Source: Candidatus Baldrarchaeum yapensis
Lineage (GTDB): Archaea; Asgardarchaeota; Baldrarchaeia; Baldrarchaeales; Baldrarchaeaceae
DNA: 17,709 nt
Direction: 5' to 3'
Assembly: GCA_016840465.1 (NCBI GenBank)
Contig: JAEOSH010000048.1
Coordinates: 1 to 17,709 of the forward strand
Part shown: positions 3,670-17,506 of the stretch, piece by piece
How the letters are laid out: every line of letters starts with the position of its first letter
Position numbering within the stretch: position 1 is the stretch's first letter
Notes under the pieces: model-generated
Databases searched by the model: none
Told to the model about the DNA's origin: nothing
What the model saw: the letters and a program-made list of their open reading frames with translations, nothing else
Program-made: the position numbers and the translations under genes

Positions 3670-4470
3670 TTATCTGCTCCTACTAAGGTTCTCCCTCAGA
3701 TTCTTAAGCAACGATGAGAGTTCATGAATGTTCTTAACCGCATCTAAAAGCTGGCATGCAAAGTTAAGAAACTTCCTAATCGCAACACGCGAATGCCGAC
3801 TATTCAGCAGTGAAAACACAAGTTCATCGCTATCATCCAGTATCTCCCTCGTGTGGGAAATTAGTCTCTTAAATGAGGGGCCTGCAAACTTTTCGAGTTT
3901 CCTCACACCCTCCCTACAGACAAAATACCCATAGAGCAACCCTATGAAGTATGGGAGCGCTATCGTTACTGCAACCGTCCGATCGTGAAACTCGGGATCT
4001 GCTATCACAATATCAGCGCCCAAAAGGCTAAATAAATCTATTACGAACTTGCAGTCCTCGCATCTTCCGTCCACCGGGATGACCACGATTTTTCGAGACT
4101 TGAAACTGTCTGCAGTCCTCCCAAAGAGGGGATGTACACTACACACCTTGACGCTTTTCGGAAATTTCTTGAGTACGGGAATTATGCTCCCCTTCAGTGA
4201 CGCTATGTCGATTATTATCTTCCCCCTCAGTCCACGCCTCTGAACGATTTCACGAACATCCTCTAGAACCTCGGAGGTTACGTCTATCGGCGTCGCAATG
4301 AGTATGACATCACTGTTCACCACAAGATCCTCCAGCGTTGAGTACACGACCCCCCAGAAATCCTTGACCTTCGAGGGATCTATGTCATAGACACCGATTT
4401 CAAAGTGATCCTTAAGTTTCTCTGCAAACCATCTGCCCATTCTCCCGTATCCCACGATTCCCAGCCTCAT
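3670..4470 (-). CDS. tyrA: Prephenate (or arogenate) dehydrogenase, no ACT domain
   Basis: Rossmann GIVGYGRMG, DIASLKG, SVHPLFG; last gene of the aro operon; SD GGTGA 4 nt before ATG. Confidence 0.9.
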   Translation of the reverse strand: MRLGIVGYGRMGRWFAEKLKDHFEIGVYDIDPSKVKDFWGVVYSTLEDLVVNSDVILIATPIDVTSEVLEDVREIVQRRGLRGKIIIDIASLKGSIIPVLKKFPKSVKVCSVHPLFGRTADSFKSRKIVVIPVDGRCEDCKFVIDLFSLLGADIVIADPEFHDRTVAVTIALPYFIGLLYGYFVCREGVRKLEKFAGPSFKRLISHTREILDDSDELVFSLLNSRHSRVAIRKFLNFACQLLDAVKNIHELSSLLKNLRENLSRSR

Positions 4471-4474
4471 GCGA

Positions 4475-5536
4475 TCACCGTCCGCTACATTCCTCCGCGA
4501 CCATGTTCATTCTCCTGAACGCCTCCTCCAATCTATCAGATACGAGTGATACCCTTACGAACTGCTTGTAATTTCCAAACGCCTCTCCCGGAAATACGCT
4601 GACACCCTGCTTGAGCAGTTTATATGTGAATTCGGTTCCCGAGATTCCAGCCTTAATCTTAGGAAATATGTATATTGCGCCATCCGGCTCCACAAACTCG
4701 AAGAACTTCCTGCCAAGCGTTTTCTTCGCTGCTTCAACCCTCCTCTTATAAATGTCGGATACTATTCTCCTGACTTCATCGATTACCTCGAGGGCCTTGA
4801 GGGCCGCCGCCTGTACAAATCCGGGAACGCACGTCACGGTGGCCTCTATGAACCTCTGGATTTTCTTGATGATCTCCCTGTTCGCGATAGCGAAGCCTAT
4901 TCGAAAGCCCGTCATGCTGAACGTCTTCGAAAAACTGTGCACGAACACTCCCTTTTCATAGTTGAAGTCAAGTATTGAGGAGAACCTCGAGTTGAATAGA
5001 ATGTCCCTGTAAACCTCATCCGATACGACGGTGATTCCCCTTTCAGACGCTACATCTAGGAGCTCTCTCATCTTGCTCCGTGGAAGTGCGACACCCGTCG
5101 GATTGTTCGGATAGTTTATGATCACGAGATCGACCTCGTCATCCATTTCGGTAAAGTCCGGAACCCATCTGCCCTCCATCGAGGTCTCCAAGACCTGAAT
5201 CTTCTTGCCGAAAAGAGATGCCATATGGACGTATGCGGGCCAGAAAGGTGCAATAACCGCAATCTTTCTCGAAAAGAACACCTGCGACGCTATTAGGAGT
5301 TTCGATCCCGGCGATATTATTACCTCTTCCGCGTCAACATCATATAGTTCCGCGATCCTTTCCCGCAACTCCCTTATTCCAACCGTGGAGACGTACTCCG
5401 TCTCGCCCCTCCTGATGGAGTCGAACATTGCCCCGATGATTCTCTCATCGACCCTGATGTCCGGTTGCCCCGCGTCTAGCCTTATCTCAACATCGGACTC
5501 GGATAGCTTGTTGAAAAACTCGTAGACGTTAAACAA
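4475..5536 (-). CDS. Class I/II PLP aminotransferase (AspC-like, likely aromatic aminotransferase)
   Basis: NYPNNPTG, SDEVY, SFSKTFSMTGFRIG motifs; TTG start abutting the chorismate mutase stop. Confidence 0.9.
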   Translation of the reverse strand: MFNVYEFFNKLSESDVEIRLDAGQPDIRVDERIIGAMFDSIRRGETEYVSTVGIRELRERIAELYDVDAEEVIISPGSKLLIASQVFFSRKIAVIAPFWPAYVHMASLFGKKIQVLETSMEGRWVPDFTEMDDEVDLVIINYPNNPTGVALPRSKMRELLDVASERGITVVSDEVYRDILFNSRFSSILDFNYEKGVFVHSFSKTFSMTGFRIGFAIANREIIKKIQRFIEATVTCVPGFVQAAALKALEVIDEVRRIVSDIYKRRVEAAKKTLGRKFFEFVEPDGAIYIFPKIKAGISGTEFTYKLLKQGVSVFPGEAFGNYKQFVRVSLVSDRLEEAFRRMNMVAEECSGR

Positions 5537-5779
5537 TCACCCATCACCCTGTAACCTTATCGACAGCCTCAAAATCTCCCTAAAAACGTCCCTGTAGATT
5601 CCTGCCCTTCGTAAAACGTGCTCCTCCCTCTTCGGGTCTCTGATGTCCAACCCTATCCTCCTCTTCAACTCCCTGATCTCCCTCACAAGCTTCATCCTCC
5701 TATCGAGCAATCTTATTATCTCCTCGTCTATCCTGTCGATCTCCCGCCTGAGCTCCAGTATCCTCTCCAACTCAACCAC
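5537..5779 (-). CDS. aroQ: Monofunctional chorismate mutase (AroQ class)
   Basis: LRREIDRIDEEIIRLLDRRMKL...IRDPKREEHVL signature. Start is GTG 5779, or TTG 5770 after SD GAGGTG. Confidence 0.9.
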   Translation of the reverse strand: MVELERILELRREIDRIDEEIIRLLDRRMKLVREIRELKRRIGLDIRDPKREEHVLRRAGIYRDVFREILRLSIRLQGDG

Positions 5780-6834
5780 CTCAGGAGGTGATCCGTCAAA
5801 ACTATCGCGAAAACCGCCTCTACGACTGGCACTGCCCGTATCGCGATACAGGTATCAAACCTCCCCCTCAGTTTCAAATCTACCTCTCTCATCTCCCGGA
5901 GATTCACGCTCCTCTGCGGTTTCAGGATGGACGGCGTGGGCTTTATCACAACTCTGAACCTTATAGGTGCACCGTTGCTCATTCCCCCGAGTATTCCACC
6001 TGCATTATTCGTTCTGAACTCCACCCTCCCATCCCTAACTGTAAGCTGATCGTTGGCCTCGCTCCCCCTCATTTGTGCGAGTCTGAATCCCGCCCCGAAT
6101 TCTATGCCCTTGACTGCCGGTATCACGAACATCGCCTTTGCAAGATCCCCGTCTAAGGTATCTATCGGGGGCTCCCCGAGACCCACCGGGACGTTAAGCG
6201 CCACCGCCTCGATGATCCCCCCGATACTATCCCCCTCATTCTTAATATCGCGCAAAAGGTCTACTATTCCTCTGGAAGCTTCCAGGTCCGGGCATGCAAC
6301 TGGGCTCTTGGGGAGGTTTTCCCTAATTTCCTCAAGAGTCATGTCTTCCCTCATGCGGACGTTTCCTATTTGAAAAACGTACGCCAGTACCTCTATTCCG
6401 AATTTTTCGAGAACTTTCTTTGCAATAGACCCTGCGGCAACAAGCGCGGCCGTTATTCTACCCGAGAAGATCCCCCCACCCCTATAATCGTTGAAACCGA
6501 AGTACTTAATTCTGGCAACATAATCCGCGTGTCCCGGCCTCGGAATGTCCTTTATCTTCTCGTAGGGTGCGGAGTCGACGTCTCGATTCCATACGACTAT
6601 TGTTATGGGCGCGCCCGTTGTCCGCCCGTTGAAGACCCCGGATAGGATTGTAAAATCGTCCTCTTCATCCCTAGGACTGGAGAACTCGTCCTTTCCGGGC
6701 CTCCTCCTCTCGAGATCTCTCCTTATGTCGTCGGGGTTCACCTCTATTCCGGGAGGGCATCCCTCTATCACGGCGCCCACGCATTTCCCGTGGCTCTCTC
6801 CGAATATCGAGACCCTGAACGCCTTCCCTATCAT
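5728..6834 (-). CDS. aroC: Chorismate synthase
   Basis: FGESHG, PRPGHAD, RGGG, GDSIGG, IPAVKGIEFGAG, NNAGGILGGMSNG, KPTPSI; ATGA overlap with aroA. Confidence 0.97.
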   Translation of the reverse strand: MIGKAFRVSIFGESHGKCVGAVIEGCPPGIEVNPDDIRRDLERRRPGKDEFSSPRDEEDDFTILSGVFNGRTTGAPITIVVWNRDVDSAPYEKIKDIPRPGHADYVARIKYFGFNDYRGGGIFSGRITAALVAAGSIAKKVLEKFGIEVLAYVFQIGNVRMREDMTLEEIRENLPKSPVACPDLEASRGIVDLLRDIKNEGDSIGGIIEAVALNVPVGLGEPPIDTLDGDLAKAMFVIPAVKGIEFGAGFRLAQMRGSEANDQLTVRDGRVEFRTNNAGGILGGMSNGAPIRFRVVIKPTPSILKPQRSVNLREMREVDLKLRGRFDTCIAIRAVPVVEAVFAIVLTDHLLRWLSWRGYWSSGGRSTG

Positions 6835-8087
6835 TGGAACTCGACCCTCCCGCCGATTCTCATAAGATCGTTAAAGAACGCGGGATAGGAGTCCTGCACA
6901 CAATCTACTCCTAGGATCTTGCTCTCGCCCCTCGCACCCAGCGCCGCGATTACAAGCGCCATCGCTATCCTGTGATCCCCATATGAGTCCAGAACCGCAC
7001 CCCTTAACTCCCTATGCCCTTTGATTACGAGTCCATCTTCTCTTTCCTTAACATTTACTCCCATTCTTTTCAGGTTATCGGCGATCGCGCGTAACCTATC
7101 CGATTCCTTGTATCTGAGGTGATCAGCACCCGAAATTATTGTTGTTCCCCTAGCATAGGCGCCTAGGACGGATATTACGGGAACAAGATCTGGCGCGTCA
7201 CTGCAGTTCACATGTATTCCCTCTAGGTCTCCCCGGGATACTTCAATCACCTCCCCATGGATCTTGACATCCGCACCCATTTGACAGAGGACGTCGAGTA
7301 TCATCCGGTCCCCTTGGACGTCCCTCGGATCTAGGCCCCGCACCCTCACCTTGCCGTGCAAGGCTCCCGCCGCAAGTATGAACGCCGCAGAGGAATAGTC
7401 ACCCGGGATTTTGAACGTGGTGGGTATCGGGTTTTGCCTTTCGACGGAGAACCTCCTGTAATCTTCCCTATGTACCGATAGACCGAACCTCCTCATGGAC
7501 TTTATCGTTATATCCAGATAGGGACGCGACTTCGGCTCCGAAATGATCTCGATCTCGAGGCCCACCTTTGGCGCAACGATTAGGAGGGCCGTAATGAATT
7601 GTGATGAAACATCGCCTCTTACCTTCAAAGTACGGGACTTTATCTTGTCCCTTCCGCCTCGGACGAGTATGGGAAGTCTCCCCCCTTCGGAAAATTCCAC
7701 CTCTATTCCCATTTGAGACAGTGCCTCGATCATCGGAGACATAGGTCTCCTCCTTAAGGATGCGGACCCGTCTATCACCGTGGTTCCGTCAACTAGGGCG
7801 GCAATTGCCATTGAAATCCTCGCGGTGGTTCCCGAGTTTCCGCACCAGATGACATCTTTTGGCTGGACGGGATCTCCAACTCCGATAATCCTTTCCCAAG
7901 ACGCGTCAGCGCCGAACTCTCGTATCGCGCCCATGCTTGCCTCTGTGTCATTCGATATGAGGGGGTTCACTAATCTGGACTCTCCCTCCGCGAGCAGGGA
8001 AAGAAATAGAGCCCTGTGGGTGTAGCTCTTAGATGGCGGGGCCCTGACCTCCCCGCTTATTTCAGATGGGACGACCCTAACGTTCAC
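6831..8087 (-). CDS. aroA: EPSP synthase
   Basis: PPSKSYTHRAL, GNSGTT, RPM, SSQFITAL, GDYSSAAF, KESDRL, DHRIAM. Start moved to GTG 8087, 5 nt after SD GAGGTGA. Confidence 0.97.
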   Translation of the reverse strand: MNVRVVPSEISGEVRAPPSKSYTHRALFLSLLAEGESRLVNPLISNDTEASMGAIREFGADASWERIIGVGDPVQPKDVIWCGNSGTTARISMAIAALVDGTTVIDGSASLRRRPMSPMIEALSQMGIEVEFSEGGRLPILVRGGRDKIKSRTLKVRGDVSSQFITALLIVAPKVGLEIEIISEPKSRPYLDITIKSMRRFGLSVHREDYRRFSVERQNPIPTTFKIPGDYSSAAFILAAGALHGKVRVRGLDPRDVQGDRMILDVLCQMGADVKIHGEVIEVSRGDLEGIHVNCSDAPDLVPVISVLGAYARGTTIISGADHLRYKESDRLRAIADNLKRMGVNVKEREDGLVIKGHRELRGAVLDSYGDHRIAMALVIAALGARGESKILGVDCVQDSYPAFFNDLMRIGGRVEFQ

Positions 8088-8092
8088 GGTTA

Positions 8093-8932
8093 TCACCTCG
8101 TCTCCGTGATGATTATCCTCTCGGCATCCTCCCTCTCCTCCCAAACTTCCCTTACCCCTTCCGGATCCTCGGTGACCGCTACAACAGCTGGCCCGGTCCC
8201 CGAAACTGCCGCCGCGATTGCGCCCGCCTTTAAGGCTTCAAATATCGGGCTCGTGTCATATCCCAGTAAGGCCGCATAAAGAATTCCGTTTATTACCATT
8301 GCCTCCCTCCACTTTCCGGCAAGCGCCAATTTGAACGCCTCTTCCACGTAGGGTGCCACTATTTTGAAGTTTACACCCTTGAGGGACCCCTTGCTGACCC
8401 TCTTCCTCGGCACAAGTATCACGACTGGCAGTCGATCAACCTCCTCCCGCTTGATCAATTCCGTATTGATGTTATCGGTGATGCACAAACCTCCTAGGAG
8501 GGAGGCGCACGCATCGTCGAACGCTCCCGTTATGGTAACACCAGCGACCTTTGCGGCCTCCACTCCGAGTTTTATTACCTCTAAGGGATCGAGTTTCTCC
8601 CCGATGGCATCTAAAACTGCGGATACTAGGGCGTTTGCTGCCGCGCTGCTACTTTTAAGTCCTCTCGATATTGGAATTTCCGAGCGGATGAATACTCTCA
8701 ACCCTCCCTCTATTCCAAATTTGCGAAACATGACCTCCTTGACGGCCCTCACAAGATCAAAATCACATACTTCCTCCGTCCCATCAATTCGAATTTCCCC
8801 CTCAATGACATCCTCATCAACTATTTCAATGTGTGCCTCCGTCCTCAGTTTTATTCCAATTGCTGCACCTTTTCCGGTGGCTATCGCGTTTATTACCGTG
8901 ATCGCACCGTAGGCTTCACCCTTCCCCCTCAT
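8093..8932 (-). CDS. aroK: Archaeal (GHMP-family) shikimate kinase
   Basis: GAITVINAIATGKGAAIGI, IPISRGLKSSSAAAN, TGAFDDA, SGTGPA. Confidence 0.95.
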   Translation of the reverse strand: MRGKGEAYGAITVINAIATGKGAAIGIKLRTEAHIEIVDEDVIEGEIRIDGTEEVCDFDLVRAVKEVMFRKFGIEGGLRVFIRSEIPISRGLKSSSAAANALVSAVLDAIGEKLDPLEVIKLGVEAAKVAGVTITGAFDDACASLLGGLCITDNINTELIKREEVDRLPVVILVPRKRVSKGSLKGVNFKIVAPYVEEAFKLALAGKWREAMVINGILYAALLGYDTSPIFEALKAGAIAAAVSGTGPAVVAVTEDPEGVREVWEEREDAERIIITETR

Positions 8933-9791
8933 TTTCCTCCACCCCTAATGCTTTCAGTGCCGCATTTCTCATAATTCGAATATCGGGATAGTGCCCTGTC
9001 CAGAGTTTAAAGCTCTCTGCCCCCTGGAGAACCAGCATCCACAACCCGTCTATCGTTGTACATCCCGCTTTCATGGCGTCCCTGAGAAGTTTAGTATGCA
9101 ACGGCCTGTAAACTATGTCGAAGACCACCAATCCGGGTCTTAGCAAGTGTTCCGGCACCAAACTCTCATTCGACTCCATGCCCACCGATGTGGCGTTTAT
9201 CAGAATGTCCGCATCTCTCAGTTCGTTCTCGAGATTCCTTACGCTCAGCCGCATTCCACGAACTGTTGAGCCGTTATTTGCAAGGTTTCTGGCGAGATTT
9301 ACCGCCTTTTCTTCGGTTCTGTTCAGAATTGCGAGTTCGGAAACCCTGCCGGAAAGGGTATACGCAATCGCCCTTGCGGCCCCTCCAGCTCCGAGCAACA
9401 CCACTTTTTTCCCATCCACGTCGGTGAACATCTCAAGGGATTTCAATGCGCCCACACCGTCGGTGTTGTAACCCTTAAGTGTCCCACCTTCGTTGACGAT
9501 CGTGTTTACCGCACCTATCTTCCGAGCGTCCTCCGATACCTCATCCAGATACTTCACAACCTCTATTTTGTGGGGCATCGTCACGTTTGCTCCCCCTATA
9601 CCCAACGATCTGATCCCCTCAACCGCCTTTCCGAGGTCTTGCGGCTCAACCTCGAATGCCACGTACACGAAGTTCAGGTTAAGGGCTCTTATGGCGGCGT
9701 TGTGCATTACCGGGCTCAGCGAGTGCCTCACAGGTTTTCCTATCAGGCATAAAACCCTAGTGCTCGCATCTATTATTGCAAGACCCTCCAA
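8916..9791 (-). CDS. aroE: Shikimate dehydrogenase
   Basis: HSLSPVMHN, NVTMPHK, GAVNT, NTDGVG, GAGGAARA, NATSVGM, DGLWMLVLQGA. Start is TTG 9791 or ATA 9776. Confidence 0.96.
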   Translation of the reverse strand: MEGLAIIDASTRVLCLIGKPVRHSLSPVMHNAAIRALNLNFVYVAFEVEPQDLGKAVEGIRSLGIGGANVTMPHKIEVVKYLDEVSEDARKIGAVNTIVNEGGTLKGYNTDGVGALKSLEMFTDVDGKKVVLLGAGGAARAIAYTLSGRVSELAILNRTEEKAVNLARNLANNGSTVRGMRLSVRNLENELRDADILINATSVGMESNESLVPEHLLRPGLVVFDIVYRPLHTKLLRDAMKAGCTTIDGLWMLVLQGAESFKLWTGHYPDIRIMRNAALKALGVEENEGEG

Positions 9792-10432
9792 ACGCTCCTC
9801 ACCTCATCAACCGTCAGTTGCCCACTGGCGGTTTCCTTCCCCCTCGATACGGATGCGTATGTAAATGGAGCACCAAAAAGCGGCGCGAGTATCCTGGAGA
9901 TCCTACCCAGATCCCCCATGCAGAATGCAACGGTTGGTATGTTCTTTGGCTCGGCAACCAGCCTCAGAGCGATAATGTTATCCTCCATCCTACGGGCATA
10001 CGTTACTATTTTTGCAATGTCGGCACCACTTCCGGCAATGGCGTCCCGTATTTTCACCAGCTCTTCGAAAGGGGGCGTTTTCTCGAAATCGTGATGGGAA
10101 ACTATGACTTTAACTCCATGCCTCCTCGCAAGGCGTATGACATCATCGCGAATGTCCGAATTCAGTTCTATATCAATGTACCGTGGTTTTATCTTTATAA
10201 ACCGCCTAAACGCTTCAAACCTCTCCCTTTCGCTTCCGGTGAAGGCCCCACCCTCTTTCGCCGTCCTGATGGTAATTATAAGCTTGTCGGAAAACTCTCT
10301 CAGAGAGTCAAACCCATTGAAGTCCTGCAGGAAGTCCGCGCGGATCTCAATAAGATCCGCCTTTTCACCCACACTTTCCACATCTGCGATGGCTTCCTTG
10401 ATTGTTTTCGCCTTCACACATGCGACTATCAA
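9773..10432 (-). CDS. aroD: Type I 3-dehydroquinate dehydratase
   Basis: EIRADFL, TIRTAKEGG, YIDIEL, SHHDFEKTP, IAKIV, MGDLGRISR, ASGQL. Start moved to TTG 10432 (TTGA overlap with the aroB stop, after GGAGGT). Confidence 0.95.
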   Translation of the reverse strand: MIVACVKAKTIKEAIADVESVGEKADLIEIRADFLQDFNGFDSLREFSDKLIITIRTAKEGGAFTGSERERFEAFRRFIKIKPRYIDIELNSDIRDDVIRLARRHGVKVIVSHHDFEKTPPFEELVKIRDAIAGSGADIAKIVTYARRMEDNIIALRLVAEPKNIPTVAFCMGDLGRISRILAPLFGAPFTYASVSRGKETASGQLTVDEVRSVWRVLQ

Positions 10433-11481
10433 TTTGCAACCTCCGTCAACGCCTCGAGGATCAAATCTTCCGGTACCTCCATTATTCTCACGGATCCTAT
10501 CCTCTCCGGCAAAATCATGACCTGCCTTCCATACCACGCCTTTTTATCGACCTTTATTGCCTCCATTATCCTCTTCGGGTCCAAGTTGTGCCTCGTGGGC
10601 AACCCCAAGGTTTCTAAGAGCCCAATCACCCTGTCCGTTTCCCTGAAGCCCAATAGTTTCTCGGCAATTAGGCAACACACGACGATGCCCACCGACACCG
10701 CGAACCCATGCTTTATCCGGTAGTTCGATGCACTCTCTATCCCGTGTCCGATCGTATGCCCGAGGTTTAGAATCCTCCGTTTGTCAGACTCTCTAAGGTC
10801 CTCCTCGACGACCTGCACTTTCAACATCACACATCTCTTGACAATATTTGTTACAATGTCCTTATCTTGCGCGAGCACCGCTCTTGCGTTTTCTTCCAGG
10901 TACTCGAAGAAGTTTCTGTCCATTATGATGCCGTACTTCGCAACTTCCGCCAGTCCGTTCAGGTACTCTTCCCGCGGAAGCGTTTGCAGAGTCTGGGGGT
11001 CTATCAGAACGACGTTTGGGGGATAGAACGTTCCAATGATGTTCTTGCCTATGAAGTTTACGCCCGTCTTACCCCCGATTGCGGCATCCACCTGGGCCAT
11101 GAGGGTTGTGGGGATGAGGATCAAAAGTATCCCGCGCATGTACGTCGAGGCGACGAACCCCGCGAGATCGGTTATGACGCCGCCGCCCAAACCTATGAGT
11201 AGGCTTTTCCTCGTAAACCCATTTTTTATCATCTTACTCCATATCTCGATCGCTGTCTCTATGCTCTTTGCGTCCTCTCCATCCCTTACTAAAAATAGAG
11301 AGATGTCGCCGTCAAGGGATTGAAGTACGGCGTCTAACCAGAATTTCGCGACGACGTCGTTTGTCAGGACTCCCACCTTGAACGGAGAAAGTTCATCGAC
11401 CCATCCGCGTAGATCGCCGAGACTGTTCCATCCTATCACTATTTTCCCCACTATTGCCGACTCTATTACCTCGGTATCCAT
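10429..11481 (-). CDS. aroB: 3-dehydroquinate synthase
   Basis: [56 protein letters not shown]. Confidence 0.97.
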
Positions 11482-12263
11482 CTCCTTACCTCCGAAATAA
11501 GTCTTCTGAAGTCCTCGAATGTGAGGCTCTGGGGGCCATCGGATAGAGCCTCTGAGGGATTGGGGTGCACCTCCACCATTATCCCATCGGCACCAACAGC
11601 GGCCGCTGCCCTCGCCAATGGGATTACGAGGCTTCTCTTCCCGGCGGCATGAGATGGGTCCACAATCACGGGAAGATGGCTCAGTTCCTTAACCACGGGA
11701 ACCGCCGATATGTCGAGGGTGAACCTCGTCGACGGCTCAAAAGTTCTTATTCCCCTCTCGCACAGGATCACGTTCTCGTTTCCCTCGAGCATTATGTACT
11801 CGGCGGCAAGCAGCCACTCCTCAATGGTGGATGAAAATCCCCTTTTCAGCAGCACAGGCATTTTTCTCTTTCCGACTTCCCTGAGCAACGGTGTATTCTG
11901 CATATTTCTGGCGCCTATCTGCAACATGTCCGCGTACTTTGCAACGAGATCCACATGTCTGGTATCGAGAACTTCCGTAACAACGGGCAATCCGGTCTCA
12001 TCACTCGCTTCCCTAAGCCATTTCAGTGCTTCCTCACCGAGTCCTTGGAAGGAGTATGGCGACGTCCGAGGCTTGAAAGCCCCTCCCCTCAGCATGTCGG
12101 CGCCCACTTCCTTTAGGAACCTTGCGGTTTCCAGGATCTGCTCCCTGCTCTCCACCGAGCACGGTCCCGCTATTATTACGAAATCCTCGCCTATCTTTCG
12201 TCCCCCCACTTCTACCACGGTTTTTTCGCGATGTTCCTTACTTGTAAGCTTGAACTTCTTCAT
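11466..12263 (-). CDS. aroF: DAHP synthase class I-beta, catalytic barrel only
   Basis: [59 protein letters not shown]. Start is ATG 12263 (ATGA overlap with transketolase beta), giving 265 aa. Confidence 0.96.
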
Positions 12264-13195
12264 TTCACCACCTCCTCCGCCGCTCTCACTATACTTTCGA
12301 TGTCGAGACCGTAGTGTTTGAGAAGAGATACGTAGTTCCGCGAGCACGTTCCGAAGGTATCCCTGATGCCGACCCTCTTCATGCGAACCGGGTACTCTTC
12401 GGAAATCTCCTCCAAAATTGCGCTTCCCAGTCCCCCGAAGATGTTGTGCTCCTCTACCGCTACAAATGCGCCGGTGCGACTCGCCATATTTATGAGTGTC
12501 CTCCTATCGAGGGGCTTAATTGTGTGCACGTCGATAACAGCGGCGTTTATGCCTCTTTTCTTCAGAATTTTCGCTGCATGAAGGGCCATCGCCGTCATGA
12601 CCCCACATGCCGCTATGCAAACATCATCGCCGTCCTCAAGGCGATTTATCTTTCCCATTTTTATCTCGGATTCGTCCTCGTAAACTCTTGGGGCGTAATC
12701 TCTGCCTATTCTCATATATGCGGGCCCATGCCTCTGGAAAATTTCGAAAAGGAGTTTTCTGGTGGAGACAGCATCGGCAGGCACCACGACGTTCATGTTT
12801 GGGATGACCCTCATGATCGCAATATCCTCCAGCGACTGATGGGAGGAACCGTCAAGATAATCGGATAATCCGGCATGTGTGGCAACAAATTTCACATTAA
12901 GGCGGTCCCGCGCAACCGTATTGCGTATCTGTTCCCAAGCTCTCATAAGGAACATTGAGAATGCGGACACTAGAGGGAGTTTCCCTGCAATTGCGAGGCC
13001 CGCGGCGGTTCCAACGAGGTCCTGTTCACTGATCCCAACTTGGATGAACCTGTGGGGGAACCTTTCGGCGAACTTCTTGGTCATCGTGGAGCGCGCAACG
13101 TCGGCGTCCAGTACGACGAGGTGTTCCAGTTTCTCACCCAGCTCTAATAACGCCTCGGCAAACGCTCCCCTGTAGCTTTCCACCGTGAAGTTCAC
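12260..13195 (-). CDS. Transketolase, C-terminal (beta) subunit
   Basis: [55 protein letters not shown]. Confidence 0.95.
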
Positions 13196-14307
13196 TAGCC
13201 CTCACCCGTATGGGCAATTATTACCTTCGGCGCGCCCCTCACCCTTTCCGCCTTCATTAACGCATCCAGAATTTGCCCGTGATCATGCCCATCTACCTCG
13301 AAGACCTCCCAGCCAAACACCTTCCACCTCTCACGGAGCGGCTCCTTCGACTTTATGCCCTCGGTGGGACCATTGAGCTGGCTTCCGTTCCTATCCACGA
13401 TCGCAATTACATTATCCAGCCGGTAATGGGCGGCGGTCATGGCGGCCTCCCATATTTGTCCCTCGTCAAGCTCTCCATCCCCGAGTATCACGTAAACGTT
13501 CTTTCGCACACCATCCATCTTTGACGCCAGAGCAATGCCGTTCGCTACCGATAACCCTTGACCCAGAGACCCCGTGGAGACCGCAACCAAGGGAACCCCT
13601 CTTTTTGCGTGCGTCGGCAGTTTAGATCCGAGGTCTCCGAACGTTTTGAGGTCATCATCTTTTATGAATCCAAACTCCGCAAGTATGACGTAAAGCGCCG
13701 GGACGCAGTGCCCCTTGCTCAGGATCAGAACATTGTCGTCCGGTTTGGCGTTATCCAGGATGAACCACTTCGTGAGCAGGACTAGCAGTATGTCCAGCAC
13801 GGATAGCGACGAGCCGAGGTGCCAGTTTCCAACAGGTTTTAGAACCTCCCTCAGCCTCTGCTTGAGCTTCCACGACAACTCTCTGAGATGCACACTAATA
13901 GCCGCGGAGATATCTTCCGGTTTTTGACAGGAGATCTGATGGACATCCAGGACTCTTACCTCGTTCTGGCAATCAACTTTCCCATTCATATCGGCGCTAC
14001 AGCCCATCCGACCGCAGTCGTGCCTGTACTCACAACAGCCTTTGTCATTTTCGGATGCCGAGATGAGCGCGAGAACAAGTCTGCCCAATTCGGTGATCTC
14101 CACGTTCTTGGGCGCGTTTTTGCTACCATAGTCTATTAGTCCCAGGTCTTTTAGTATTTTGGCGTTCAGTTTCAGGGTCGATGGAGAAATCGAGTACTTC
14201 TCCGAGAGGTACGAGACAAGGGAGTTCAGGGAGGAAAACTTTCCGTCCGCGTGCGAGAGAATCAGAATCTGTTTCTCGTTGAGGGCCCTGCGCAGAAGTC
14301 TACCCAT
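13195..14307 (-). CDS. Fusion: winged-helix regulator (Tar-like) + Cys-rich linker + transketolase N-terminal (alpha) subunit
   Basis: aa 1-84 wHTH-like (SLNSLVSYLSEKYSISPSTLKLNAKILKDLGLIDY...VEITELGRLVL); aa ~85-135 linker with 6 Cys; aa ~136-370 transketolase (HLGSSLS, LSKGH, STGSLGQG, TPP motif GDGELDEG...IVDRN). The frame stays open to 14382, so the true start may be further upstream. Confidence 0.85.
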   Translation of the reverse strand: MGRLLRRALNEKQILILSHADGKFSSLNSLVSYLSEKYSISPSTLKLNAKILKDLGLIDYGSKNAPKNVEITELGRLVLALISASENDKGCCEYRHDCGRMGCSADMNGKVDCQNEVRVLDVHQISCQKPEDISAAISVHLRELSWKLKQRLREVLKPVGNWHLGSSLSVLDILLVLLTKWFILDNAKPDDNVLILSKGHCVPALYVILAEFGFIKDDDLKTFGDLGSKLPTHAKRGVPLVAVSTGSLGQGLSVANGIALASKMDGVRKNVYVILGDGELDEGQIWEAAMTAAHYRLDNVIAIVDRNGSQLNGPTEGIKSKEPLRERWKVFGWEVFEVDGHDHGQILDALMKAERVRGAPKVIIAHTGEG

Positions 14308-14342
14308 TCCGGCCGCGTTGGGCTTTCTACGGATGATGTTTA

Positions 14343-14378
14343 TTAACTCCTCGGTAATGGATATTGGCAGAACAACAT
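14343..14378 (-). other. SD-led 11-codon uORF MLFCQYPLPRS, or the frameshifted true start of the fusion gene
   Basis: GAGGTGA (14389-14383) + 4 nt + ATG, the same spacing as tyrA and the 17199 gene, but out of frame with the downstream ORF. Confidence 0.5.
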
Positions 14379-14428
14379 CGCCTCACCTCAGCTCTTGTAG
14401 GACCCTTTCTCATCATTTCACCCTTCCA

Positions 14429-14461
14429 TTTTAAAGTCTGACGGGCAACTTTACCTATCCA
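14429..14461 (-). promoter_or_regulatory. Putative aro operon promoter: Tar-like box TGGATA-N8-TGCCCG (14461-14442) + 6 nt + TATA box TTTAAAA (14435-14429)
   Basis: Directly read from the sequence; 9/12 match to TGGACA-N8-TGTCCA with exact spacer; correct orientation and distance to the SD. Confidence 0.6.
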
Positions 14462-14652: not shown

Positions 14653-14907
14653 CTACCATAACAACTCAAGCCTCCGCTCATCTCTCCTCCGCTCCCTGTA
14701 CAACTCCCTTAGCGCCTTATCGGCAATATCGGAAGATACCGGTTTGCATGCCTCCAGCAATAACCGAGGGTTCTTCCTTCTCCTGTACATGAGAAGGAAC
14801 CAGATCGCCTCGTCGAGGGTGACCCTCCTTCCCAGCTTTATCTGTAACTCCGACACGATCCTCAACAGCTCCCTCTTAACCTCCTCACCGATGAGAATCA
14901 CAGCCAT
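14653..14907 (-). CDS. VapB-type antitoxin-like protein, no toxin downstream
   Basis: MAVILIGEEVKRELLRIVSELQIKLGRRVTLDEAIWFLL...ALRELYRERRRDE resembles crenarchaeal VapB; SD GAGGT present. Confidence 0.65.
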   Translation of the reverse strand: MAVILIGEEVKRELLRIVSELQIKLGRRVTLDEAIWFLLMYRRRKNPRLLLEACKPVSSDIADKALRELYRERRRDERRLELLW

Positions 14908-14921
14908 ACAGGGTTACCTCA

Positions 14922-15179
14922 TCATTCAAAACCTGTCGAGGAGAGTTTTCTGGACAGTTCCTTCTCCCCCTCCTCTATCAGACGCTCCTCGTCGACGGGC
15001 TTGCCGAGAGTCGATGAGCATTCCTCTATCGGATCGAATTTTCCACCAGGAATCAATATCAACCTCCCGGCGTCCAAAATGCATATTAACTCATTGTTCT
15101 CCTTTATCCCCAGCTTCCTCCGGACAACCGCTGGCAACTTCACGATCCCGTTACGGTATACCTTAATTCTGTAAATCAT
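14922..15179 (-). CDS. AbrB/MazE/SpoVT-family DNA-binding protein (antitoxin-like)
   Basis: KVYRNGIVKLPAVVRRKLGIKENNEL...LILIP signature. Confidence 0.85.
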   Translation of the reverse strand: MIYRIKVYRNGIVKLPAVVRRKLGIKENNELICILDAGRLILIPGGKFDPIEECSSTLGKPVDEERLIEEGEKELSRKLSSTGFE

Positions 15180-15269
15180 ATGACCACCAACGTCGGAGGC
15201 ACCCCTTCACTTAATGTGTTGTCATTTATTTTTATGGCAATAGGTGGTTGCATTATCCTCTGTGGCACG

Positions 15270-15572
15270 TACGCAACAGCCGAGGAGTACTTGAAGGCGC
15301 TCACCTACCACTTCAACTTCAGGGACATAATAAGCGAAGTGATGGGGAGGGGAAGGTGAACCGTGACGTCTCTCGAGAAAGCGATGGAGAGAATCTCGGA
15401 TGTCATCGGCGCCTGGTTCGAAGGTGGATGGGATAAGGCAAACTACCTCCACGTGTGGGGATTCCATGAGGCAAAGTTAAATGTCGAGGCCGTGAAAAGA
15501 AGATTCCCCCACCTAGAGAAAATGGTCAACGAATCCCTAAAGATAGTCCGTAGCCTCCATCACAAAGGGTAG
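15270..15572 (+). pseudogene. PaREP1-family (HEPN-like) pseudogene, 5' truncated, with a nonsense codon
   Basis: In-frame YATAEEYLKALTYHFNF...GRGR*TVTSLEKA...WDKANYLHVWGFHEAKL. TGA at 15357-15359 replaces the expected Trp (TGG) of GRWT. Confidence 0.8.
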
Positions 15573-15728
15573 GACACTTACACGATAAGGGCCGTTACTG
15601 CAGTATGAAAACCATGTAAAAAGAAATTAGGAGTAAATAGAGGTCGCGGCTCCCCATTATCTTCAATTCATTCCTGCCATGTGGAAGAATACAAATATTC
15701 GACCAGATATACTCAGAATGGGGTCTGC

Positions 15729-16228
15729 ATGTCAGAGGTCATAGTTCTTCCCAAAGCGATTGTAGATAGGGTTAGAAAGGAGGCGGAGAGGCGCGGTCTC
15801 TCGCTCGGAGATTACATTATCGACCTCCTATCTCAGGGTCTGGACCCAAAAGACAGAGCCAGGGAGTACGTCATTGTTGCTGAGGAGTTATTAAACAGGC
15901 CGAAGAGGAGTTGAAAAAGGAAGACCTGAGGCAGGCCGCCGAGAAGGCGTGGGAAGCAGCCGCCTTGGCTGTGAAGGATTATGCGTACTGGAAGGAGGGC
16001 AAACATCTTTCGAGCCATGGCGAGTTATGGGAGTACAGTAGGGTCATTTCCGAAGACCTGGGAACTTGGGTGTTAGAGGTGTGGAATCAGGCATCGGGAA
16101 TGCATACATGCTTTTACGAGGGGTGGTGCACGAAAGAACATGTTGACGCCACCCTGAAATTCATAGAAAAACTCGTAAACGCAATTGCCGAGATGGTATT
16201 GAAGGATAAAACTCTCCGGACAAGTTAA
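15729..16228 (+). pseudogene. PaREP1-family gene split by a one-base frameshift
   Basis: MSEVIVLPKAIVDRVRKEAERRGLSL...LDPKDRAREY...ELL continues in the -1 frame as QAEEELKKEDLRQAAEKAWEAAALAVK...SHGELWEY...MHTCFYEGW. Junction at TTAAAC 15891-15896. Confidence 0.85.
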
Positions 16229-16509
16229 GACATACAAAGTATGAGTGGTAGAAGTTCCATTAGGTTTGGGAATTCGGCCCGAAAGAAGGTATCTTGTCAC
16301 GTATCCGAACATTCGAGAAATATGCTTTCAACGTGAGCACTCATATTGATCCTTGAGATTGCTCTTTTTCCTACAAATCGAATCTCCTACCGATAATATA
16401 AACCCTTTACTCCTCCGCTCATGAACTCCCATAACTCCTATAACCTTCCATCTAACCGTATTTTATCACTCATTCACACATATCACGCGAACTACAACCG
16501 CGCATCTTG

Positions 16510-16923
16510 CTAGAACCCTAAATCCTCGGGCGTCTTTCTCTTAACCCACTTCACACGATCAAAATCCTTATCATAGGAGACGATGACCTTAATGTTCAGC
16601 TTTTTCATCGTGCGTACAGCTAGCGCATCATCAAAATCTAACCCCTCGTCCCTCATCACCTCAGTCGCCTCAATTTTATCGTAAATGGTTAGGTGGTAAA
16701 TCGAGAGGCCGCGATACTGCAACAAGGATGTTAAAAAGACCGCGATGTCCCTCCATGACTTCCCATAATTCTCCATGACGATGACGACATTATCTATATG
16801 AAAATCGGTGGTGTACGCATCGAGTCTTCCGGATTGAACCGCCTTGAGGAAATTTTTCGCCGGGACTCCGTGCTCCTGCGCTAATTCCACTTCAAGGAAG
16901 ATATTTGAATCGATAAATAGCAT
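16510..16923 (-). CDS. vapC: VapC PIN-domain toxin
   Basis: FIDSNIFL, LDFDDAL, SYDKDFD; ATG abuts the antitoxin stop. Confidence 0.92.
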   Translation of the reverse strand: MLFIDSNIFLEVELAQEHGVPAKNFLKAVQSGRLDAYTTDFHIDNVVIVMENYGKSWRDIAVFLTSLLQYRGLSIYHLTIYDKIEATEVMRDEGLDFDDALAVRTMKKLNIKVIVSYDKDFDRVKWVKRKTPEDLGF

Positions 16924-17199
16924 TCAACTCACGCTCTTCTTCGCCCTTATTCTCCTAGCCTCGTGCTGAAGCTCAACCCCGCTCTTCTTTACGTGACTGA
17001 GCATCCCATAAATCGCCTCGACCGGATCCTCGATCAACCCCACCACCTTAATCGCCTCCGAAACCCTCGCAACCCATTCACTCAACGCCTTCTCCGCCGC
17101 TACGCTCAAAGACCCCTTGCCGTACCCGTAAAGTTTCATCGCAAGTTCCCTGAACTTCCTTTCAACCTCGTCCGATACGTACACCTTTATGCTTCCCAT
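16924..17199 (-). CDS. vapB: Ribbon-helix-helix-type antitoxin paired with VapC
   Basis: MGSIKVYVSDEVERKFRELAMKLYG...SLSVAAEKALSEW; start moved to ATG 17199, 4 nt after GGTGA. Confidence 0.82.
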   Translation of the reverse strand: MGSIKVYVSDEVERKFRELAMKLYGYGKGSLSVAAEKALSEWVARVSEAIKVVGLIEDPVEAIYGMLSHVKKSGVELQHEARRIRAKKSVS

Positions 17200-17218
17200 G
17201 GAATCACCGATTAAAAAG

Positions 17219-17234
17219 GACCTTAAGACCTTAA
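17219..17234. repeat. Tandem direct repeat GACCTTAA x2 in the vapBC promoter
   Basis: Exact 8-mer duplicated; overlaps and follows the minus-strand TTATTAA element (17237-17231). Confidence 0.6.
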
Positions 17235-17506
17235 TAACCATTGCCCTAAATCCCCAATGGCACCTAAACATTAAAGACACTAATTACGTCATAGGCCACC
17301 ACCACGACGACCAAAAGCATCCACCACCGCCAATCTGCAGACTCTAAAACATCAGTCCCGAATCACTAATCTGCAATACCATAGTCACACCACCAAAACC
17401 AACTCCATGAATTCAGCCGAAAAACCCACGACAAACAACTATAACGCCCGAGACTAGAGCACCGATCTTCTCGCCATTTTTAAATCATAAACCCAAAATC
17501 TTTCAA

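Follow-up and report, generated by a model that had tools for sequence, protein, structure and literature searches.

To our knowledge, few transcription activators of archaea have been characterised; Tar is one of them, and until now it has been regarded as a small, free-standing protein of the Thermococcales. In trigger enzymes such as PutA and BirA, one polypeptide holds a DNA-binding domain and an enzyme of the regulated pathway, and catalysis or ligand state switches DNA binding. Bacterial programmed frameshifts include that of prfB, a +1 shift responding to the level of release factor 2, and that of dnaX, a −1 shift stimulated by an upstream Shine–Dalgarno (SD)-like element. The gene described here, tar-tktN, lies in a 17,709-nt stretch of contig JAEOSH010000048.1 of Candidatus Baldrarchaeum yapensis (the window, to which all coordinates refer unless another contig is named) and encodes a Tar-like winged helix–turn–helix (wHTH) domain fused in frame to the thiamine pyrophosphate (TPP)-binding N-terminal half of a split transketolase (TK-N), behind a leader with a mini-open reading frame (mini-ORF). 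The gene heads an aro/tyr operon of 11 genes, and the operon, its promoter and its leader all lie on the minus strand.

Yamamoto et al. (2019; PMC6737238) described Tar homologues within the aro operons of Thermococcales and a few distant ones elsewhere. In Thermococcus kodakarensis, the Tar regulon is induced by the loss of any one aromatic amino acid; phenylalanine, tryptophan, tyrosine, chorismate and other pathway compounds do not release Tar from DNA, and erythrose 4-phosphate (E4P) alone does so, at about 5 mM; as the authors noted, how the lack of any single aromatic amino acid is sensed was left unexplained (PMC6737238). As in T. kodakarensis Tar (PMC6737238), the wHTH of tar-tktN has about 85 residues and is encoded by the first gene of the aro operon, just upstream of the split transketolase sequences; a Tar-box-like sequence that keeps 9 of the 12 specified positions of TGGACA-N8-TGTCCA precedes the putative TATA box. 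The T. kodakarensis protein consists of about 90 amino acids (aa) and stands alone, whereas here Tar forms the N-terminal domain of a 370-aa protein, attached through a linker of about 40 residues.

The enzyme half resembles the split transketolase of structure 6YAK in that the TPP/metal motif and the active-site histidines are present and the partner, the C-terminal half (C-half), is the product of the next gene; unlike 6YAK, the fusion has an additional N-terminal DNA-binding domain and a linker, and its enzyme role is read from sequence. Like PutA and BirA, tar-tktN joins a predicted DNA-binding domain with an enzyme of its own pathway; in contrast to them, any communication between its halves is conjectural, and the regulator would be an activator at archaeal promoters of the B recognition element (BRE)/TATA type. 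A 2024 survey of archaeal fusions (PMC11237513) reports Tkt N+C and Tkt-N/ribulose-phosphate 3-epimerase proteins (Thaumarchaeota) and no regulator–transketolase fusion; unlike in those proteins, the partner here is a transcription factor rather than a pentose-phosphate enzyme. Full-text literature searches found no paper describing a Tar–transketolase fusion, in agreement with the original prediction, made from the letters of the window alone, which knew of no described fusion of this kind.

A single stop-free frame runs from 14382 to the stop codon at 13197–13195 (395 codons) and, as the original prediction had stated, joins a wHTH, a linker and a TPP-binding transketolase domain. The ATG at 14307 is the sole canonical start (ATG, GTG or TTG) in this frame and gives an ORF (13195–14307) with a 370-aa product, and the 25 codons at 14382–14308 are part of the leader and no conventional N-terminus. 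The Tar winged-helix DNA-binding domain occupies aa 1–88 (14044–14307), as indicated by the family model, phmmer relatives and AlphaFold2. The proposal that it is a homologue of Tar (TK0271) has been borne out by the match of residues 3–86 to the NCBIfam model NF053753, 'TK0271 family transcriptional activator' (E = 5.6e-29, 100.2 bits, model positions 4–87 of 89), by the predicted MarR-like fold and by the position of the gene at the head of the aro operon. Folded alone with AlphaFold2, the wHTH reached a predicted local distance difference test (pLDDT) score of 93 and resembled winged helices of the MarR/ArsR/PadR type (template-modelling (TM) scores of 0.6–0.75); a search of the PDB sequences with the Tar profile gave no significant match. 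Across 30 Tar-family members, the fusion protein included, S43, T44, L45, N48, L52 and G75 are invariant, and the recognition-region motif ...STLK.N..L... is kept in the fusion and in fused relatives at 44–57% identity.

The transketolase N-terminal half spans about aa 130–370 (13198–13920). Its identification as the TPP-binding half of a split transketolase also held, with residues 160–367 matching Pfam Transketolase_N (PF00456; E = 1.1e-32), residues 141–370 matching the NCBIfam transketolase model NF004559 (E = 9.5e-69), and residues 140–370 finding as the best solved match chain A of 6YAK, a split transketolase N-terminal component (E = 9.5e-54). The GDG...N metal/TPP motif (G276-D277-G278...N307) and H163, H200 and H233 are invariant among the fused relatives. 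Judged by these residues and matches, the Tar domain and the TPP-binding TK-N domain are both intact. In this genome, a 96%-complete metagenome-assembled genome (MAG) of 100 contigs, the fusion alone matches Tar strongly, and no other match to TK-N was found; two distant wHTH paralogues match Tar far more weakly (43 and 27 bits).

The two domains are parted by a Cys-rich linker of about 40 residues (about aa 89–129; 13921–14043), which has no family match and is predicted to be disordered, residues 90–118 having a pLDDT below 50 in an AlphaFold2 model built on a 38-row alignment and both flanking domains lying at about 90 or higher. Six cysteines (C91, C92, C98, C103, C113 and C127) fall within 37 residues, and this Cys-rich character is peculiar to the species. 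In the closest relatives, P0190 and P0191, the linkers are even longer, barely alignable and not Cys-rich, and across the fused forms linker length ranges from about 10 to about 75 residues. No metal or redox site is claimed for the linker, because the cysteines are not conserved in the nearest relatives and the region is predicted to be disordered. The disorder and poor conservation of the linker thus suggest two tethered modules rather than an allosteric machine.

The fusion is no artefact. The same 370-aa protein occurs on at least 15 contigs in ENA, JGI, NCBI and Logan assemblies from about ten different samples, and in the 10 loci retrieved every base of the gene and of the 250 nt upstream agrees with the window. 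A simple scan of the linker for a bulge–helix–bulge (tRNA-type) intron returned many weak candidates, none of them specific.

The architecture also recurs, as far as sequence comparison can tell, in many other archaeal lineages. An exhaustive phmmer search with residues 1–140 against 1.84 billion cluster representatives gave 185 matches, and P0047, P0055, P0077 and P0091 were found to carry a Tar-like domain ahead of Transketolase_N, and P0112 a Tar domain ahead of a full three-domain transketolase. When the 120 best cluster representatives from a TK-N search were scanned with a Tar hidden Markov model, an N-terminal Tar domain was detected in at least 43, contrary to the rarity that the original prediction implied. 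The fusion is thus common among the closest database relatives of this transketolase, which are mostly unnamed metagenome sequences. The named fused proteins are labelled 'transketolase' or 'hypothetical protein', the MAG labels including Nitrososphaeria and Sulfolobales, and all named proteins among the 43 Tar-bearing representatives are called only 'transketolase'. In species-representative genomes scanned with a Tar-domain alignment, other genomes with the fusion intact and in frame, which the original prediction had proposed to look for, were found in a Bathyarchaeota MAG (L050) and a Nitrososphaeria MAG (L085); a Thermoproteota 'Kor2' MAG (L065) has a fused but broken locus. An earlier word-indexed search with residues 1–140 had returned only the query; the apparent uniqueness reflected the sensitivity limit of that search and was overturned by the phmmer and TK-N searches.

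Gene calling affects these counts. Both of the apparently unfused representatives checked, P0273 and P0223, are 5′-shortened gene calls: upstream of the called start the frame is open for another 113–118 codons, which encode a whole Tar domain that has no canonical start. The 43 of 120 is therefore a lower bound, since some unfused calls are 5′-shortened calls of fused genes, and public 'transketolase' entries of this type are often 5′-truncated. At L126 and L127, and within clusters of spread length, near-identical fused proteins are called as 272, 324, 344, 360 or 388 aa, variants that arise because the full Tar domain lacks a canonical start codon.

The arrangement of the two genes varies between lineages. 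Most fused homologues have linkers of roughly 10–20 residues without internal starts. In Thermococcus MAGs, tar and tktN are separate genes with overlapping stop and start codons (…GAATGA…, ATGA), and in Thermoplasmata, Tar homologues lie directly ahead of DAHP synthase or DHQ synthase. A maximum-likelihood, midpoint-rooted TK-N tree of 124 rows, whose fused and unfused labels are affected by gene calling, placed the fused forms in three clades, with the unfused Thermococcales nested in a 51-row clade (support 95/97) whose other members are almost all fused. This nesting suggests, and we hold the point loosely, that Tar became a free-standing protein in Thermococcales by fission. In the P0091 cluster (22 members, Sulfolobales MAGs), the TK-N part has neither the GDG motif nor equivalents of H200 and H233 and matches Pfam at only 4.5e-6; possibly it is a pseudo-enzyme retained for regulation or dimerisation.

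The region upstream of tar-tktN contains GAGGTGAGG, an SD-like element that lies about 40 nt downstream of the TATA box and is followed by a 12-codon mini-ORF (14343–14390 for the two together). The mini-ORF starts with the ATG at 14378 and ends with the TAA at 14345–14343, and its codons 5 and 6 are CAA TAT (Gln-Tyr; 14366–14364 and 14363–14361). The open stretch of the Tar frame upstream of ATG 14307 (14308–14382) lies in the −1 frame of the mini-ORF, and from the ATA at 14364 the Tar frame runs through 19 codons into the Tar ATG. No Rfam family scored above threshold anywhere in the window. In a strict scan of the genome for a mini-ORF with an open −1 frame, three sites passed, and an aromatic codon follows CAA only at the site in the window. 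Two further motif matches in the same genome fall within coding genes and were discarded as chance.

When the upstream regions of Tar-family loci were aligned (Thermococci, Thermoplasmata, DHVE2, Bathyarchaeia, Nitrososphaeria and others), the order was everywhere the same: Tar box, TATA box and a unit resembling GTGATG-YCC-YGC-CAA, after which came TTT/TTC, TGG or TAT/TAC; in four lineages, two or three tandem units read Gln-Phe, Gln-Trp and Gln-Tyr. We took a census of 80 distinct leaders, searching up to 150 nt upstream of the Tar domain for ATG, one to three codons, CAA and any codon. The unit with a cognate codon was present in 47 of the 80, and by frame there were 59 matches for which the Tar domain lies in −1, against 2 and 2 for the other frames. 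The codon after CAA in these 59 units specified Tyr in 25, Phe in 16, His in 5, Leu in 5, Trp in 2 and others in 6. Where a unit was recognisable, the Tar frame was open from the junction of CAA and the cognate codon to the Tar domain in every locus (44/44), two of the 44 having a stop within the unit itself, just upstream of the junction. No ATG, GTG or TTG occurs between the junction and the Tar domain in 26 of these loci, among them the closest relative, L122, at which a full Tar domain has no canonical start and the gene call starts inside the conserved domain.

The codon after CAA tracks the downstream pathway in the loci compared, with Phe, Trp or Tyr at aro operons, His at hisG or hisS and Pro at proC. 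Tar paralogues with hisG (L048) or hisS (L081, L083 and L100) downstream lie behind His units, a Pro unit lies ahead of proC, a Tyr unit ahead of a class-I W/Y tRNA synthetase, and a Trp unit ahead of a PALP enzyme of TrpB size. Tyr and Phe units together lie ahead of a DeoC-type aldolase, which we tentatively take to be the alternative aro entry enzyme. The loci with the His and Pro units, the Tyr unit at the tRNA synthetase and the Trp unit at the PALP enzyme (L048, L081, L083, L100, L110, L108 and L090) come from Micrarchaeota, Marsarchaeota and other labelled or unlabelled archaeal MAGs. From these comparisons, Tar-family proteins look like amino-acid regulators in general and not of the aromatic pathway only, each with a cognate-codon leader of its own. 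No account of an aromatic leader peptide in archaea turned up in full-text literature searches.

Some further leaders were noted in passing. On contig C61 of the same genome (49188–49310; L111), a second unit, GGTGATG TCC TGC CAA TTT, encodes Met-Ser-Cys-Gln-Phe-Leu-stop behind a TATA-like box and some 100 nt ahead of pheS (NF003210, 8e-56), which the contig end interrupts; pheS shares the frame of the mini-ORF instead of lying in −1, and the −1 frame stays open for about 40 codons, closing shortly after the start of pheS. In a Thermococcus MAG (L115; G042:C22:17676), the same 14-nt motif, GATGCCCTGCCAAT, occurs just upstream of a gene starting MPKFDV..., presumably pheT, and the codon after CAA is TTG (Leu), one base from a Phe codon. 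The leaders of L124 and L122, the closest relatives (Logan contigs), differ by one A in a run of seven or eight between the mini-ORF stop and tar, a difference that in L124 places tar in the mini-ORF frame and that could reflect either an error in sequencing or a run that is naturally slippery.

Upstream of the leader lies a putative TATA box, TTTAAAA (14429–14435), read from the sequence; related loci show the same arrangement of box and TATA. Ending 6 nt upstream of it is a Tar-box-like palindrome, TGGATA-N8-TGCCCG (14442–14461), which agrees with the T. kodakarensis site TGGACA-N8-TGTCCA (PMC6737238) at 9 of 12 specified positions. A box was found at the same position relative to TATA in every Tar-family locus inspected. 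A genome scan with the consensus and TATA gave 37 matches at a limit of three mismatches, and aromatic genes were not enriched among them beyond the window's own promoter.

Considering these results, we propose the following scenario, which we judge the best explanation and a reasonably probable one: tar-tktN is a real, maintained bifunctional regulator–enzyme gene in which fusion hard-wires translational coupling and the leader probably gates translation. The wHTH, dimerised via its own helices and the obligately dimeric transketolase, would bind the Tar-box-like palindrome beside the TATA box and activate its own operon, as Tar does in T. kodakarensis, and the TK-N part would pair with the C-half from the adjacent gene to produce E4P for DAHP synthase. 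The separate tar and tktN genes of Thermococcus overlap at ATGA, and in the fused state coupling is absolute; fusion may thus be the end-point of the translational coupling seen where the genes are separate, with the same gate governing Tar and the first enzyme.

That gate is probably the mini-ORF with its Tyr codon, as the layout of the leaders suggests. Ribosomes would start at the SD-led mini-ORF, and when Tyr-tRNA is scarce a ribosome with its P site on CAA and its A site on UAU would pause and slip −1 from CAA into the Tar frame. The GGTGA element 7–10 nt upstream may aid the slip, as the SD-like element does in dnaX, and a small hairpin in which GGTG pairs with YRCC is possible. The slip would raise the output of both activator and enzyme precisely when the amino acid runs short, and ATG 14307, which has no SD, may add basal expression in this species. 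Like prfB and dnaX, the leader combines a short frame, a limiting A-site codon, an SD-like GGTGA about 7–10 nt upstream and a downstream gene in another open frame; it differs from them in its archaeal host, in the proposed limiting aminoacyl-tRNA (Tyr), in the proposed −1 direction relative to prfB, in the invariant CAA in the P site and in having no classical slippery heptamer. A translational sensor of this kind would explain how the loss of a single aromatic amino acid induces the T. kodakarensis regulon even though Phe, Trp and Tyr have no effect on Tar binding in vitro (PMC6737238).

Several points weigh against this scenario. The window has an ordinary in-frame ATG, at 14307, where Tar proteins usually start, and a frameshift is therefore not obligatory at this locus. 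If tRNA-Gln slipped −1 from CAA to CCA, its middle position would be mismatched, and there is no slippery heptamer. The leader may possibly act by stalling without any change of frame, or initiation may possibly take place at AUA or AUU in the Tar frame, although His and Pro units have ACA or ACC at that place, which are poor start codons. On the side of DNA binding, the Tar box has three mismatches, and matches of that quality in the window number 6 against 6.3 expected by chance; the trp operon of the same genome (contig C51) has no box within four mismatches. The Tar domain scores 100 bits with NF053753 and does not reach the curated cut-off of 130. This model carries the NCBI model type 'exception', and we take it to be perhaps tuned to Thermococcales proteins. 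In the same trp operon (C51:14860–14960), the start of the trpA-like first gene contains ...TTC CAA TGG... in the +1 frame relative to the gene, which is the frame relation of the leader units, but no ATG was seen for it.

In its fullest form, the scenario would make the fusion the older and commoner archaeal state, with the Tar of Thermococcales a fission product, and the whole protein would be made mainly through a −1 slip at a hungry Tyr codon (elsewhere Phe, Trp, His or Pro). We advance this only tentatively. If it were true, one recoding event would deliver both the operon activator and the first enzyme, and the question left in 2019, how these archaea sense the lack of any single aromatic amino acid, would be answered.

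Rather than being tethered to the enzyme for coupling alone, the wHTH might be controlled by it in cis, as in a trigger enzyme and as the original prediction had suggested: binding of TPP, sugar phosphates or E4P at the transketolase half, or assembly with the C-half, would alter DNA binding. E4P is both the transketolase product and the only metabolite found to release T. kodakarensis Tar, at about 5 mM (PMC6737238), and the fusion has been kept across deep lineages. The Sulfolobales P0091 proteins, in which TK-N is still attached to Tar without its catalytic motifs, likewise fit a non-catalytic and possibly sensory role. Yet a linker that is predicted to be disordered, is not conserved and varies between about 10 and about 75 residues would hardly favour allostery. 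Thermococcales make do with two separate proteins, and in Thermoplasmata Tar precedes DAHP synthase or DHQ synthase instead, so that Tar does not require transketolase for its function. We therefore regard such control as unlikely.

The same linker bears on whether one frame yields two proteins, cells mostly making separate Tar and TK-N through internal initiation in the linker or through its proteolysis. A long disordered linker should be accessible to proteases, and in-frame ATG codons stand at residues 101 and 107. No SD-like sequence precedes any in-frame ATG, GTG or TTG of the linker, however, and the short linkers of most fused homologues (roughly 10–20 residues) have no internal starts, leaving this reading with a slim chance.

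It is also conceivable, with a low probability, that the protein is an enzyme only, the wHTH no longer binding DNA and being kept as a solubility or dimerisation tag while another regulator controls the operon. The sub-threshold TK0271_fam score, the three mismatches in the Tar box and the two distant wHTH paralogues in the genome would accord with this; but all family-invariant residues of the recognition region are kept, also in fused relatives at 44–57% identity, the layout of box, TATA and leader is conserved, and the paralogues are far weaker Tar matches, at 43 and 27 bits. That the gene is an assembly or sequencing error, or a decaying gene in which tar recently lost its stop codon, is barely credible: one base change at a Thermococcus-type ATGA overlap could merge tar and tktN and the genome is a MAG of 100 contigs, but at least 10 samples assembled independently share the identical sequence, the domains are parted by a 40-residue in-frame linker rather than by stop-codon readthrough, and dozens of diverged fused homologues have both domains intact.

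Downstream of tar-tktN, the C-half of transketolase (12260–13195), with the pyrimidine-binding and C-terminal domains (Pfam Transket_pyr, 5.6e-45; Transketolase_C, 2.4e-30), begins with a GTG that overlaps the TAG stop of the fusion by one base. The rest of the operon (3670–12347) encodes nine enzymes assigned by Pfam matches, in the order DAHP synthase, DHQ synthase, DHQ dehydratase, shikimate dehydrogenase, GHMP-type shikimate kinase, EPSP synthase, chorismate synthase, an aminotransferase and prephenate dehydrogenase, and its genes abut or overlap. Upstream of the operon (14653–17280) lie small toxin–antitoxin-like genes, among them a MazE/AbrB-type antitoxin (14922–15179), called genes with PaREP1 domains (around 15360–16230) and a PIN-domain gene (16510–16923) with a small partner gene at 16924–17280.

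The results presented here indicate that the Tar family is widespread across Archaea and that many lineages without cultured members have Tar joined physically to the enzyme making E4P, its only known effector. The fused form offers a natural construct with which to test whether an enzyme domain tunes an archaeal activator. Annotation pipelines at present overlook the regulator domain of tar-tktN genes and also misplace their 5′ ends. The attached leader is a more surprising element than the fusion itself. Together with the conserved promoter, which like the leader the original prediction did not mention, it bears more directly on gene control than the coupling of DNA binding to the state of the transketolase that the original prediction proposed. 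The conservation of the leader provides a testable explanation of how aromatic amino acids are sensed in archaea.

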